Assembly (NCBI GenBank): GCA_051453625.1
Contig: JBOZIK010000001.1
Coordinates: forward strand, 33,074,030-33,123,732
DNA from: Welwitschia mirabilis
Taxonomy: Eukaryota
Direction: 5' to 3'
DNA: 49,703 nucleotides
Position numbers and translations under genes: made by a program. Position 1 is the first letter of the stretch, and each line of letters begins with the position of its first letter. The notes beneath the pieces are model-generated. The model saw only the letters and a list, made by a program, of their open reading frames with translations. It did no database searches and was not told where the DNA came from. Of the stretch, positions 42,631 to 48,970 are shown one piece after another.

Positions 42631-42932
42631 GTGAACTTGGAAAAACCTGTAGAGTAATACAGATCCGAGATCAATCTTGGGAGAAGCTAATCATTGAAAG
42701 TAAAATAGGAAAGTTCTTGAAACACTATAAATCTGACGTGCCTCAAATTTAGTAGCTTGTGGATTTTATTCTTTGATTCTTTACTTTTAGTTTTTCATTA
42801 ACATATGCAGATTCTTGATTTAGTTATTTTTATATGCAAGCTATGATTTAGATGGAATTATTTTAGATTTATGTATAAGTTTTTAAAAGAACCTATTCAC
42901 CCCTTTCCCCTCTAGGGTTCTCGATCCTATCA

Positions 42933-42946
42933 TTTGTTATCAGAGC
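42933..42946 (+). promoter_or_regulatory. tRNA-iMet primer-binding site (duplicate copy at 43431-43444)
   Basis: TTTGTTATCAGAGC / TTTGATATCAGAGC versus TGGTATCAGAGC, directly after the LTR CA. Confidence 0.85.
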
Positions 42947-42998
42947 TCAAGTTAGTCTTTGAGATATTTTTATAGATCTAGACTTAAGAAACCTAAAA

Positions 42999-45255
42999 AT
43001 GAGTAACTCAACTGATGGATTTTTAACTGGTCATCCATCCATGTTCAATGGTTTAAACTATGCCTGTTAGAAAGATAGGATGAAAATATTTCTCAGATCG
43101 CTAGATGTCGATATAGAGGAATTCATATACAAAGGTCATACCATGCTTATGATAACACAAACTGATGCAAATGATCACACTGTATTAGTTCCCAAATATC
43201 AAGACTAATGGACTCCTACAGATAAAGAAAAAGCTACTATTAATGCACATGCTCTTAATGCTATCTTTTGTGCAGTANNNNNNNNNNNNNNNNNNNNNNN
43301 NNNNNNNNNNNNNNNNNNNNNNNNNNNNNNNNNNNNNNNNNNNNNNNNNNNNNNNNNNNNNNNNNNNNNNNNNNNNNTTTTTAAAAGAACCTATTCACCC
43401 CTTCCCCCTCTAGGGTTCTTGATCTTATCATTTGATATCAGAGCTCTGGTTAGTCTTTGAGAGATTTTTATAGATTTAGACTTAGGAAACCTAAAAATGA
43501 GTAACCCAACTGATGGATTTTCAATTGGCCATCCATTCATGTTCAATGATTCAAACTATGCCTTGTAGAAAGCTAGGATGAGAATCTTTCTCAGATCCCT
43601 AGATGTTGATATAGAGGAAGCCATATACAAAGGTCATACCATGCTTATGATAACATAAACTGATGCAAATGGTCACACTATCTTAGTTCCCAAATCTCGA
43701 GACCAATGGAATCCTATAGATTAAAAAAAAGCCACTATTGATGTACATACTCTTAATGTTATTTTTTATGTAGTATGTACAGATGAATTTAAAAGAATTG
43801 TAAACTATAACCATGTAAAGGAAGCTTAGGATATCTTATAAGTGGCACATAAATGAACATCCATTGTTAATCAAGAAAAACTATAAATGGTTATTTTTAA
43901 ATTTGAAGATATTCATATGGATAATGAAGAAATCTTATAGAAATTCTTTGCTAGACTTACAGATATTATGAACTCAATGGCAATCCTCGAAGAACACATA
44001 GAGGAAAGGAAAGTGGTAAGAAAAGTTTTAAGATCCCTGCCCAAGAGATTTGAATAAAAGATAATAGCCATAGAAGAGAGTAAAAACATCAATGTCATGG
44101 AATTGGAAGAACTTTAAGGTAATCTTTAAACCTATGANNNNNNNNNNNNNNNNNNNNNNNNNNNNNNNNNNNNNNNNNNNNNNNNNNNNNNNNNNNNNNN
44201 NNNNNNNNNNNNNNNNNNNNNNNNNNNNNNNNNNNNNGATAAGCCTCGGAGAATGCATAGAGGAAAGGAAAGTGGTAAGGAAAGTTCTGAGATCCCTACC
44301 TAAGAGATTCAAACTAAAGGTGACAGCCATAGAAAAGAGAAAAAACATCAACATCATAGCATTGGAAGAAATTCAAGGTAGTCTTCAAACCTATGAACTT
44401 AAGACTACTAAAGATAGAAGAAAAGGTATTTCTTTGAAATGTGTGTAGGAGAATCATAGATTTGATAAGTTAGATAAAGACTTAATGATGATGAGGTGGC
44501 TCTTCTAGCCAGGCACCTTAAAAAGTTTTTTTACAAGAAAAAGGAAGAAGAATTAAGTAGGAATCTAAGGAAAAGCAACCCAAACAAAGAAAATAGCAAG
44601 AAAAACGAGAGAAAATCCCGTGCTATTCATGCAAAGAATTTGGACATATGGCTAACGAGTGTTCCAACATTAGAAGAGAAAATAGAAAGTCTAGAAACAC
44701 CTCATGCATGACAACTTGGGATAATGAGAATTATAAAGATAAAGATAACTACTCGGATCATGAATCGACTAGAGATAGGAGATTATCTTTCATGTCTCTA
44801 GTTCCATCACTTAAAAATGTGCCTAGTACTTCAATTTCAGATGACTTGGATATGATTGATGAAGAGGAAGATGAGTTAGAAGATACATGCAAAGAGTTAT
44901 ATGAAGAATATGAGAAGCTCGCTAAGAGAATTAATAAGTTGAATAAAATGGTAAAGACCATTATAAAAGAAAAGGACGAAGTGGAAGAGAAGTGCAAGGC
45001 TCTCAAACCTGACAACATCATGTTAACTACTTAGGTAAATGATCTTTTATTTTTTGTAAATAAGTTTTCTGGTAGTTTAACTAAATTGGAACAGATGCTT
45101 GAAATACAAAATCCAAATAAATATAAATTAGGTATTAGTTTTAGATCATAAATATCATAAAAACAAGAAGACCAAACAAGTAAGTTTATGCCTAATCTAT
45201 TATGTAATTTTTATGGTAGATTTGATCATTCTAAACCTTTTTGCAAAGTTAGATG
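42999..45255 (+). pseudogene. gag: Copia gag (UBN2-type, two CCHC knuckles), partly duplicated across gaps
   Basis: MSNSTDGFLTGHPSMFNGLNYAC*KDRMKIFL; RKVLRSLPKRFKLKVTAIE...LEEIQGSLQTYE; CYSCKEFGHMANEC (44621); CNFYGRFDHSKPFC (45203). Confidence 0.9.
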
Positions 45256-45301
45256 TTTGATGTTTTTTTTCTAAAATGTGAACTCATTATCTTTAAGTTT
45301 A

Positions 45302-45676
45302 TTTACTTGTATTCATTGTCTTCACAAAGTAATAACCAAGGAATTGGTGGAATTTGAAGATGGTACAGTAGGTATTGCTCTAAATCTAAAAGCCCAGAAT
45401 GTGGGAGTTGTTTTAATGGGGTATGGCTTGATGATTAAAGAAGGGACTTCTGTGAAAACAAGAGGAAAAATGGCTCAAATACTAGTAAGTGATGCTTTTT
45501 TAGGCCATATTGTAAATGCTTTAGCTCAACCTATTGACAACAGGGGTCTAATTTCTGCTTTGGAATTCCGCCTGATTGAATCTCCTATTCCTAGTATAGT
45601 TTCAAGACATTCCATCTATGAACCTCTTCAAACAAGACTTATTGGTATTGATTCTATGATTCCTATAGGACGAGGC
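45302..45676 (+). pseudogene. atpA: Nuclear copy of plastid ATP synthase CF1 alpha fragment (NUPT), codons ~39-163
   Basis: [53 protein letters not shown]...EFRLIESP...[18 protein letters not shown], colinear with plastid AtpA with no indel. Confidence 0.97.
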
Positions 45677-45894
45677 ACACATTGTACCTCAAAGAAAAAA
45701 GATTTTCATACTCTTTTTGNNNNNNNNNNNNNNNNNNNNNNNNNNNNNNNNNNNNNNNNNNNNNNNNNNNNNNNNNNNNNNNNNNNNNNNNNNNNNNNNN
45801 NNNNNNNNNNNNNNNNNNNNNNNNNNNNNNNNNNNNNNNNNNNNNNNNNNNNNNNNNNNNNNNNNNNNNNNNNNNNNNNNNNNNNNNNNNNNNN

Positions 45895-45967
45895 AGAAGC
45901 TGTATGAGGTGAAAATCTCATGTACAGTTTTGTAGAGTAACAGTAAATAGAACTTGTTAACTTTTCC
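45895..45967 (+). other. rps12: Plastid group II intron domain V-VI, matching the 3' end of the rps12 trans-spliced intron (NUPT)
   Basis: AAGCTGTATGAGGTGAAAATCTCATGTACAGTTT folds as a canonical domain V with a GAAA loop. It continues TGTAGAGTAACAGTAA...TGTTAACTTTTCC, as recalled upstream of rps12 exon 2. Confidence 0.8.
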
Positions 45968-45979
45968 AATATTAATACA

Positions 45980-46051
45980 TCAGCTTCGGAGTTTGTTAAA
46001 GAAAGTGAAGAAGTTAACCAATTACAGAGAAAAATGGTACAAAGCTATGCT
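45980..46051 (+). pseudogene. Possible fragment of a divergent plastid clpP (NUPT)
   Basis: SASEFVKESEEVNQLQRKMVQSYA has the spacing of ClpP1 [21 protein letters not shown]. Short and divergent. Confidence 0.4.
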
Positions 46052-46189
46052 ATAAATATAATCTATCTTTTTCTCATAAAAAGTATTAATTTTGCTAAAA
46101 TCTTAAACTTTTTATATGCTTTTAAAAGAAGTTGATCAGTTATTTTTAATAAAGAAAATTGTACCACTTAAGTTAAATAAGACTAAGTA

Positions 46190-47437
46190 TATTAAAGCTA
46201 ATAATCTTCAAAGCTTTTTGACACAGATAGATTTTAGAGAATTACATTTAAATAGTTGGTATCTGGATAGCAGTTTCTTAATGCATATGACAAGAGATAA
46301 ATCAAGGTTTTAGAACATGAAGAGTATAAACAGAGTAGACGTCATTTTTGAAAACAAATAAATAGCAAAATATAAGGTACATGAAGCATCAAAGGAGGTA
46401 TGTCATTTAACCTTGATAATGTACTTTATATTAATGTTTNNNNNNNNNNNNNNNNNNNNNNNNNNNNNNNNNNNNNNNNNNNNNNNNNNNNNNNNNNNNN
46501 NNNNNNNNNNNNNNNNNNNNNNNNNNNNNNNNNNNNNNNNNNNNNNNNNNNNNNNNNNNNNNNNNNNNNNNNNNNNNNNNNNNNNNNNNNNNNNNNNNNN
46601 NNNNNNNNNNNNNNNNNNNNNNNNNNNNNNNNNNNNNNNNNNNNNNNNNNNNNNNNNNNNNNNNNNNNNNNNNNNNNNNNNNNNNNNNNNNNNNNNNNNN
46701 NNNNNNNNNNNNNNNNNNNNNNNNNNNNNNNNNNNNNNNNNNNNNNNNNNNNNNNNNNNNNNNNNNNNNNNNNNNNNNNNNNNNNNNNNNNNNNNNNNNN
46801 NNNNNNNNNNNNNNNNNNNNNNNNNNNNNNNNNNNNNNNNNNNNNNNNNNNNNNNNNNNNNNNNNNNNNNNNNNNNNNNNNNNNNNNNNNNNNNNNNNNN
46901 NNNNNNNNNNNNNNNNNNNNNNNNNNNNNNNNNNNNNNNNNNNNNNNNNNNNNNNNNNNNNNNNNNNNNNNNNNNNNNNNNNNNNNNNNNNNNNNNNNNN
47001 NNNNNNNNNNNNNNNNNNNNNNCTGTTAAAGCTAATAATCTTCAAAGCTTTTTGACACAGATAAATTTTAGAGGATTACATTTGAATAGTTAGTATCTAA
47101 ATAGCAGTTGCTTAATGCATATGACAGGAGATAAATCAAGGTTTTAGAATAGGAAGAGTATAAACAAAGGAGAAATTATTTTTAGAAATAACTAAACAAC
47201 AAAATAGAAGGTACATAAAGCACCAAATAAGGTATGTCATCTAACCTTAATAATGTACTTTATATTATTGTTTTGCAACATAATTTATTAAGTGTTAGTC
47301 AACTTTGTGATAAAGGGCATAGAATAATCTTTGATAAATCGAAATGTATTGTTGTAAATGAGAAAACAAATGCTTCTATTTCTTGTTCAAAATGTGTTAA
47401 TAATGCTTATATAGTAGATGTTAAATCATTCGATTAA
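46190..47437 (+). pseudogene. Copia protease / N-terminal pol remnant (duplicated across gap)
   Basis: WYLDSSFLMHMTRDKSRF (WYLDSGCSRHMTGDKSxF) and NVLYIIVLQHNLLSVSQLCDKGHRIIFDKSKC. Confidence 0.92.
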
Positions 47438-48099
47438 ATGTTTCATGAAAACCAACACTTTAGGAAAGATTTTGATAAAACTTAATGTTATTCTGTCAAT
47501 TCTGATGAAATTCTCAGTCCTCATAATTAATTTAACTATTATGGGAGNNNNNNNNNNNNNNNNNNNNNNNNNNNNNNNNNNNNNNNNNNNNNNNNNNNNN
47601 NNNNNNNNNNNNNNNNNNNNNNNNNNNNNNNNNNNNNNNNNNNNNNNNNNNNNNNNNNNNNNNNNNNNNNNNNNNNNNNNNNNNNNNNNNNNNNNNNNNN
47701 NNNNNNNNNNNNNNNNNNNNNNNNNNNNNNNNNNNNNNNNNNNNNNNNNNNNNNNNNNNNNNNNNNNNNNNNNNNNNNNNNNNNNNNNNNNNNNNNNNNN
47801 NNNNNNNNNNNNNNNNNNNNNNNNNNNNNNNNNNNNNNNNNNNNNNNNNNNNNNNNNNNNNNNNNNNNNNNNNNNNNNNNNNNNNNNNNNNNNNNNNNNN
47901 NNNNNNNNNNNNNNNNNNNNNNNNNNNNNNNNNNNNNNNNNNNNNNNNNNNNNNNNNNNNNNNNNNNNNNNNNNNNNNNNNNNNNNNNNNNNNNNNNNNN
48001 NNNNNNNNNNNNNNNNNNNNNNNNNNNNNNNNTAACAAGTTCTCTGATAAGCTTGAAAAGAAAGCTATGTGCCAGGAGTGGTAAGTGATCACATCTGAG

Positions 48100-48970
48100 C
48101 TCAAAAACTTAGGGATATCATCTAACTCTTGAGAGATCAAGATCTAGATTATTCCTTGAATGCTTTAGGTTCTAGATTACTAGAATGTTTTATTACAATT
48201 CATCTTTTAACCATGATAACAAGACTCTAGAAATCCTCATGTTGGGTAGAAGGATAAGAGTAATAGCAGACCTCATCTTTAAGATGACTGATCTTCCATG
48301 GGAAGACTATGAGGAATTTTGGCCTCTCAAAGACTCCATGGAAGATAAGCCGATAGTTACCAGGGAGCTTTGTGGTAAAGTGCATACTTGGAAACACACC
48401 TTATCTACTTCTTTGTTCACTCCCAAATATTATTTCATTCATTTGATTTTCAGTTATATTTTTCTTCACTTAACTGACCATCATGATGAGGCCTCTACTT
48501 ACAGGGCATATTTGATGTATTTGGTAAAGATTGACCATTTTATTAATGCTTCTACCATAATACTGAAAAATACGACTTCAAAATTAGAGTACTACAAAGC
48601 TAGGGCTCTACCCTACTTTGTGCTTATCACTAAAATATGTTACCATTTTTGTATTAATTTGCATCCTTATTTGGAGGCTCTTTAGCCTTTATCACCCATT
48701 GGGTGTGTGACTTTATCTTGTATACATATCTTTACCCTTTCAAAGAAATTCCCTTCTAAAACTCCAAAAGCAACATCTTCAGATGAGATTCTTTCATATC
48801 TGAAATAGATTGACTCCCGCATCAAACACATGAAAGAAGCACTCATTGTAGCTAGATATCACATTGTAGATACCTCATCTAAAAGTACTAGCTCTACTTA
48901 TACTTGTGGAAATGATGAAGATTCAGAGGAAGAATCTGAAGAGGAAGAAGAAGAGGAAGAATTAAATTAA
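48100..48970 (+). pseudogene. Sirevirus env-like / extra ORF with acidic tail
   Basis: RMFYYN...FIHLIFSYIFLHLTDHHDEASTYRAYLMYLVK...INASTIIL...ALPYFVLITKICYHF. The frame continues through two stops to NDEDSEEESEEEEEEEELN*. Located between pol and the PPTs. Confidence 0.7.

Follow-up and report, generated by a model that had tools for sequence, protein, structure and literature searches.

How did a block of plastid DNA come to lie between the gag and protease regions of a nuclear retrotransposon, and does it belong to the element family as a whole or to a single copy? The question is raised by a stretch of 49,703 nucleotides (nt), hereafter called the window, from Welwitschia mirabilis (assembly GCA_051453625.1, contig JBOZIK010000001.1, forward-strand positions 33,074,030 to 33,123,732). 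An earlier note, made from the sequence alone, had described a mosaic of three plastid fragments at positions 45255-46110 of the window, inside a Sirevirus-like retrotransposon, and had offered two origins: end-joining repair of a break in this copy, or capture of plastid RNA or complementary DNA that the family then carried. We find that the insert occupies 45308-46151, which replaces the former limits, and is made up of four plastid fragments between the gag and protease regions of a Ty1/copia element. It is an organelle-to-nucleus insertion of a well-known type and not a family-wide feature or a new type of element. The explanation that we consider probable is a complex (mosaic) nuclear plastid DNA insertion (NUPT) in one copy or lineage of the copia family, most likely formed through end joining.

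Read evidence was taken from three contig runs (X1, X2 and X8) and one raw-read run (X14), all mapped to 44238-46439 at 80% likeness. X14 comprises 1.94 gigabases (Gb) of reads, equivalent to 0.29x coverage if the genome measures 6.8 Gb, a size that we assumed for coverage estimates only. Contig depths are summed and do not equal copy numbers.

Plastid fragments and their junctions

The first fragment (45308-45676, forward strand, about 369 base pairs, bp) corresponds to codons 42-163 of plastid atpA, as judged from protein matches, and runs in the gag frame with no stop codon. The open frame 45275-45718 matches residues 41-164 of spinach chloroplast AtpA (E 2.5e-48) as well as the Pfam family ATP-synt_ab_N. 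Its best protein match is AtpA of W. mirabilis, with 98 identities among 122 positions over residues 42-163, and Gnetum comes next. The earlier note had named the gene correctly and had set its length at 375 bp, slightly too long. Before position 45309 a contig extends with sequence that lies upstream in atpA, and within the fragment plastid reads depart from the window at 21 listed places.

The second fragment (45675-45972, forward strand) is the 3' end of plastid rps12 intron 1, that is, of the 3' half of a trans-spliced intron. According to read clipping and alignments, it consists of the last 293-295 or so nt of the intron followed by 5 nt of exon 2. At 45894-45967 (forward strand), Rfam models recognize domains V and VI of a group II intron (RF04357, 59.2 bits with a cut-off of 53; RF00029, 51.4 bits with a cut-off of 40, at 45895-45967), as the earlier note had proposed. 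We placed this stretch with the help of 53 plastid loci from metagenomes, retrieved by a 25-nt rps12 exon-2 motif taken from the reads. Positions 45895-45972 align to 47 of the 53 loci, with identities of 76-87%; the alignment stops 0-20 nt short of the exon-2 motif in 45 of them and is a collinear partial match in the other 2. Because the alignment ends just ahead of this motif, the domain V/VI stretch is assigned to the 3' end of rps12 intron 1, which bears out the rps12 origin given in the earlier note. Among the 6 loci with no match, at least 4 hold less than 50 nt upstream of the motif. The highest-scoring Rfam name for domain V, 'Plastid-ndhA-ndhB-2' (45894-45934, 59.2 bits), was dropped, precedence being given to the alignment with rps12 loci themselves. 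In decayed copies, reliance on the family name would lead to a wrong assignment of this intron. A search of viral contigs with the rps12 exon-2 motif gave 0 matches.

The scaffold gap at 45720-45894 (175 N), which the earlier note had singled out for closure, lies inside this fragment. At its left edge, 45699-45719 aligns at 20 of 22 positions in the same rps12 intron, 163-176 nt upstream of domain V in 15 loci, and none of 500 shuffled sequences reached this score. Moreover, the continuation of reads into the gap matches one of the loci (L016) right after the position of 45699-45719. Taken together, the continuation of clipped reads and the agreement between a spacing of 163-176 nt and a gap of 175 N indicate that 45675-45972 is one fragment, so that 45675-45719 belongs to the same piece as domains V and VI. 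When 45675-45719 and the fourth fragment (46054-46151) were compared with the 53 loci by short-word BLAST, only chance-level words were returned.

The third fragment (45973-46053, forward strand) encodes codons 122-148 of plastid clpP, with 26 of 27 residues identical to ClpP of W. mirabilis, in agreement with the clpP-like stretch named before. Taken alone, the 62-residue clpP frame has no Pfam or PDB match, and the assignment was made by protein search. To the three pieces of the earlier note, which all stand, we add a fourth at 46054-46151 (forward strand), a piece at plastid depth with no placed locus. Its reads are homogeneous, its contig depth (1993, 6035 and 1800 in X1, X2 and X8) is that of the single-copy plastid pieces, and at 46067 the X14 reads differ from the window in 99% of cases. 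At 46128, a 9-nt insertion is present in 397 of 538 X14 reads and in no X1, X2 or X8 contig; apparently, the plastid sequence varies in length here from accession to accession. Further pieces of atpA, clpP or the rps12 region were not found elsewhere in the window. Reads carrying the same species label map at plastid depth on all four pieces, and since the best matches of both AtpA and ClpP are those of W. mirabilis, the plastid pieces point to a Welwitschia-type nuclear genome.

Plastid reads stop abruptly at the borders between the pieces, with a clip agreement of 0.98-0.99 in the raw reads of X14. Clipping was recorded at 45675 (loose letters before it, 1036 reads), 45719 (loose letters behind, 1120 reads), 45972 (loose letters behind, running into rps12 exon 2, 1018 reads), 45973 (loose letters before, 502 reads) and 46053 (loose letters behind, 500 reads). 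The loose letters on both sides of the clpP piece encode exactly the ClpP residues next to 122-148 in protein P0001. Given that clipped reads continue otherwise than the window, each piece has different neighbors in the plastome, and the separate donor sites in the plastome number at least three (atpA, rps12 intron 1 and clpP, with one piece unplaced). That the insert was stitched from non-adjacent plastid loci is thereby upheld. From the twofold number of reads on the rps12 piece we infer a location in the inverted repeat. At the internal junctions, the atpA and rps12 homologies overlap by 2 nt (the former ends at 45676, the latter starts at 45675) and the others look blunt; the left element-insert junction lies in imperfect microhomology, at most about 7 nt long. 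In sum, homology to the plastome, nuclear embedding distinct from the plastid copy and fragments that are not adjacent in origin were all found, as expected of a mosaic NUPT.

Host element and insert-free copies

Copies of the host element that have no insert define its borders. At least 34 listed X14 reads, together with contigs of X1, X2 and X8, have a joint between about 45288-45294 and 46150-46155 at which some 19 nt intervene, and these 19 nt equal 45289-45307 in length and likeness. Accordingly, in insert-free copies position 45307 is followed immediately by 46152 within one reading frame, positions 45289-45307 are the final element-derived bases ahead of the insert, and the insert is exactly 45308-46151, with neither loss nor duplication of target sequence. 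In addition, 28 contigs of X1 and 32 of X2 start at 46152 with element sequence upstream. Insert-free copies occur in all four runs and dominate, so that the copia family as a whole is without the insert and the suggestion that the family carries it is not sustained.

These joints also bear on whether the mosaic is a single molecule. The window is a gap-rich scaffold with 30 runs of N, and comparison of the window with itself revealed three duplicate pairs of 83-89% identity, each astride an N gap: 42880-43277 and 43378-43775, 43982-44137 and 44241-44396 (83% alike), and 46192-46439 and 47026-47273 (88% alike). Probably, contigs that belong to different, diverged members of a single repeat family were strung together in the scaffold, and true local duplication is a less likely cause of the three pairs than placement by the scaffolder. 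An assembly artefact, in which different element copies or plastid reads were stitched together, could draw on these pairs, on the gap inside the insert and on the ability of plastid mate pairs to link two plastid-like contig ends. We nevertheless judge it very improbable: apart from the gap, every junction lies inside a contig, both element-insert junctions included; the element bases on either side of the insert adjoin each other in insert-free copies; the gap size fits the plastid spacing; and the pieces have diverged from the plastid.

The element itself was recognized by a copia-type gag at 43941-44445 (forward strand), seen as two overlapping fragments that flank an N gap (44138-44237) and match Pfam Retrotran_gag_2 (PF14223; E 7.3e-5 and 5.1e-8), and by a CCHC zinc knuckle at 44618-44665 (forward strand; zf-CCHC, PF00098, E 9.6e-6); both families score above their cut-offs. 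Behind the knuckle follows an acidic, helical or coiled-coil-like stretch, up to 45031, with many weak Pfam matches of coiled-coil type at residues 80-140. The second zinc knuckle of the earlier note does stand at 45203 (45203-45244, forward strand; C-X2-Y-X4-H-X4-C, read from the sequence) and is a decayed remnant that has no Pfam match at E<=1, while the first knuckle matches zf-CCHC. On the far side of the insert the element resumes at 46152 and runs to the next gap (46152-46439, forward strand), with the rest of the linker and a decayed protease active-site region, as shown by the joints from 45288 to 46152 and similar ones and by the frame 46107-46310. The second copy of this protease-region sequence, at 47026-47273, leads into a Pol_BBD match below cut-off (PF22936, 23.9 bits with a cut-off of 27).

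A copia-type gag with a CCHC knuckle followed by a protease places the element in Ty1/copia and confirms the gag-protease linker as the site of the insert; 'Ty1/copia' is as far as its class is established. Integrase, reverse transcriptase and long terminal repeats (LTRs) were not found within the window, in which the copia element is cut off after 47547 by a gap (47548-48032). Beyond this gap a different element abuts or interrupts it. A 169-residue open frame at 48176-48682 resembles Pfam Transposase_32, a putative plant transposon protein (E 2.7e-7, below cut-off). The depth of the copia element in X14 is about 250-1000 reads per site, which would correspond to something of the order of a thousand or more copies if the coverage of 0.29x and the genome size of 6.8 Gb hold. 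The family is old and very abundant, and this copy is decayed.

Decay, origin and copy number of the block

The window is AT-rich (GC content of about 0.21-0.31 in N-free windows along it), and the insert has decayed away from its plastid source. There are 26 listed places at which the letter of the window is not that of about 97-99% of reads. From plastid to window, 19 of these 26 changes are C>T or G>A and 6 are transversions. Because the letters of the window differ from those of plastid reads, the insert is not plastid contamination. The excess of C>T and G>A fits deamination-driven loss of GC, which the accessible part of PMC8275611 reports for Welwitschia. The stop-free atpA frame was considered as a sign of selection and rejected, since only four Gln codons and no Trp codons among the 122 are open to a stop by transition; the neighboring decayed gag likewise retains an open run of 145 residues. 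The native sequence of domains V and VI has stops in all three frames. The insert is without function.

Under the reading that we prefer, fragments of plastid DNA would have been captured during end-joining repair of a double-strand break. Four of them, which lie head to tail with overlaps of 0-2 nt, would have entered the linker together, in a single block and at one point; the block then decayed like the surrounding methylated repeat, chiefly by C>T and G>A. We infer a single event and a DNA instead of an RNA intermediate. The rps12 piece is nearly pure intron and bears no signature of spliced RNA; with the intron retained, nothing points to a spliced transcript. For Oryza, the accessible part of PMC12129026 describes complex organelle insertions as formed in single repair events, by end joining or template switching. 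Capture through end joining is the established origin of blocks of this type, and it accords with junctions that are blunt or overlap by 2 nt, with the clean target site and with the retained intron.

A number of observations weigh against this reading, in whole or in part. All three identified pieces lie in the sense orientation of the element, as the earlier note had stated; chance alone would give this in 1 of 8 cases, and the agreement of the atpA frame with that of gag in 1 of 3. Sense orientation is what a model of template switching on RNA predicts. The microhomology at the left junction could be used by end joining and by template switching alike. The atpA piece is more altered (24 of 122 residues) than the clpP piece (1 of 27; Fisher p = 0.048), and this uneven decay hints at pieces of unlike age, against a single event from fresh plastid DNA. 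Together with the sense orientation and the in-frame atpA, it lends some probability to template switching on RNA and to an origin of the block in more than one step. The scaffold near the insert is unreliable, with its three duplications across N gaps. Finally, as detailed below, letters of the window recur in reads from other copies.

The orientation of the pieces, the gag frame and the left-junction microhomology would suit capture of plastid or NUPT-derived RNA by template switching of reverse transcriptase within a virus-like particle, and templates of different nuclear age would account for the uneven decay. We regard such capture as unlikely. Three pieces are too few for an argument from orientation, the rps12 piece is intron that was not spliced out, exon making up just 5 nt of it, and most of the family is without the insert. 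Moreover, plastid RNA is not normally present in the cytosol. In a literature search judged by titles and the openings of abstracts, and by the accessible parts of PMC11869160 and PMC12129026, no case of plastid RNA captured through template switching by an LTR retrotransposon was found.

The recurring letters concern whether the block is private to this copy. In X14, of the roughly 450-1080 reads at each listed place, 3-24 have the letter found in the window; contigs with these letters have median depths of 55, 71 and 22 in X1, X2 and X8. The counts are correlated across the four runs (Spearman 0.49-0.81), indicating that the letters reflect real nuclear copies and not errors. Among the shared letters are three transversions, at 45422, 45447 and 45645, that replace conserved residues; counts are high at CHH sites too, and about 5 of the 26 places look private. 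Parallel mutation at CpG or CHG sites was rejected as the sole cause, given that CHH sites and transversions are shared equally often. A contig similar to atpA, which covers 45435-45640 and has several small indels, is intermediate in depth (132.9 in X2, 69.2 in X8; 16 X14 reads) and probably represents mitochondrial atp1 that cross-maps on the conserved part. As a source of the shared letters atp1 was rejected, since the depths of this contig do not fit the counts consistently. X1 and X8 each have one contig, at a depth of about 4, in which the rps12 intron end (45970) leads back to the middle of atpA. The 23 letters between the two are similar to 45474-45496, down to a Leu codon in place of a Pro that is conserved universally. 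Either a tandem repeat is hidden in the gap region, or the joint comes from a sister copy that underwent rearrangement. The earlier note had argued that an insert found only in this copy would speak for an ordinary mosaic NUPT and against transduction; here the block is probably not unique, for the letters of the window recur at low depth in four runs and the rps12-atpA joint in two.

These data lend some weight to a possible, although clearly less probable, history in which the mosaic arose once in a master copy and was carried as a passenger by a non-autonomous copia sublineage to tens or hundreds of places. Because domains V and VI bring stops in three frames, such a lineage would need mobilisation in trans. 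In its favor are the correlated recurrence of the window's letters with their derived transversions, and the joint of 45970 to about 45474, whose depth of about 4 in two runs implies several copies at less than 1x of 6.8 Gb. The mixture of diverged element copies in the scaffold and the numerous non-autonomous LTR elements that the accessible part of PMC8275611 reports for Welwitschia add to it. However, no bridging read or contig for the element-insert junction of another copy appears among the outputs of the mapped runs, insert-free joints dominate, and by our estimate the depth on the element side drops from about 670 to about 80 reads just ahead of the junction. Summed contig depths are not copy numbers, and the protein collection offers no closer copy: the best match of the 148-residue frame among proteins of similar length is 72% identical, and none is closer than plastid AtpA. 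We hold it slightly less probable again that the spreading sublineage was Sirevirus-like and took the four-piece mosaic, in sense orientation and in the gag frame, to tens or hundreds of sites in a 6.8-Gb gymnosperm genome.

There is also another place in which shared letters could reside. Decayed nuclear copies of clpP run past the 45973 border in 13 contigs of X1 and 9 of X8, which reveals a large background of other old NUPTs, and this background could hold the shared letters. Within the stretch that reads M-L-H-Q-P in P0001, these clpP copies encode Ile in place of the Leu of present-day plastid ClpP. To our knowledge, other ClpP proteins have Ile at this position, and the decayed copies may predate the substitution in the plastid lineage. 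Weighing both sides, we conclude that the plastid part is probably present in tens of nuclear copies, for which retrotransposition is a candidate vehicle only, and that some later copying of the plastid part is likely. A mosaic NUPT formed by end joining in one copy or lineage remains our preferred account of how the block arose.

The locus provides a base-resolved, multi-fragment plastid insertion in a gymnosperm-type genome, in which clipping yields the breakpoints, the insert-free target allele and a predicted content for the gap. Its main value is for annotation: the block is no gene, no plastid contamination and no new type of element. Should the copies sharing derived letters prove to be elements that bear the insert, the locus would gain in importance: LTR retrotransposons would be seen to multiply organelle DNA, and part of the NUPT count of large, repeat-rich genomes would be due to amplification and not to fresh transfer. 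Were the passenger history true, retrotransposition would be one means by which organelle DNA gains copies in the nucleus.

Comparison with known systems

Capture of host sequence by an LTR retrotransposon (transduction) is exemplified by maize Bs1. The present element has in common with such cases a foreign sequence in sense orientation within its internal region and hints of more than one copy. It differs in that the material is organellar and contains an unspliced intron, that most of the family is without it, and that no second copy with the same junctions was shown.

Among Ty1/copia elements, Sireviruses are characterized in the accessible part of PMC2829016 by a large gag with a central CCHC knuckle and a downstream coiled coil. 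The succession of a gag knuckle and a coiled-coil-like stretch, here with weak matches of coiled-coil type, may correspond to this arrangement; the env-like gene, the multiple or clustered polypurine tracts and the repeated LTR motifs described there belong to parts of the element that fall outside the portion in the window.

The closest likeness is to the complex nuclear organelle DNA insertions (NORGs) of Oryza, as far as the accessible part of PMC12129026 describes them. Common to both are non-adjacent organelle fragments in one block, junctions that are blunt or of short microhomology, a formation ascribed to end joining or replication-based template switching, later decay and entanglement with transposable elements. 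Unlike the Oryza NORGs of that part of PMC12129026, the fragments here are all of plastid origin, with no mitochondrial piece seen, and the host has a gymnosperm-type, very AT-rich genome. The entanglement is also reversed: whereas in Oryza elements are described as inserting into NORGs (PMC12129026, same part), here the block lies inside the coding linker of a copia element.

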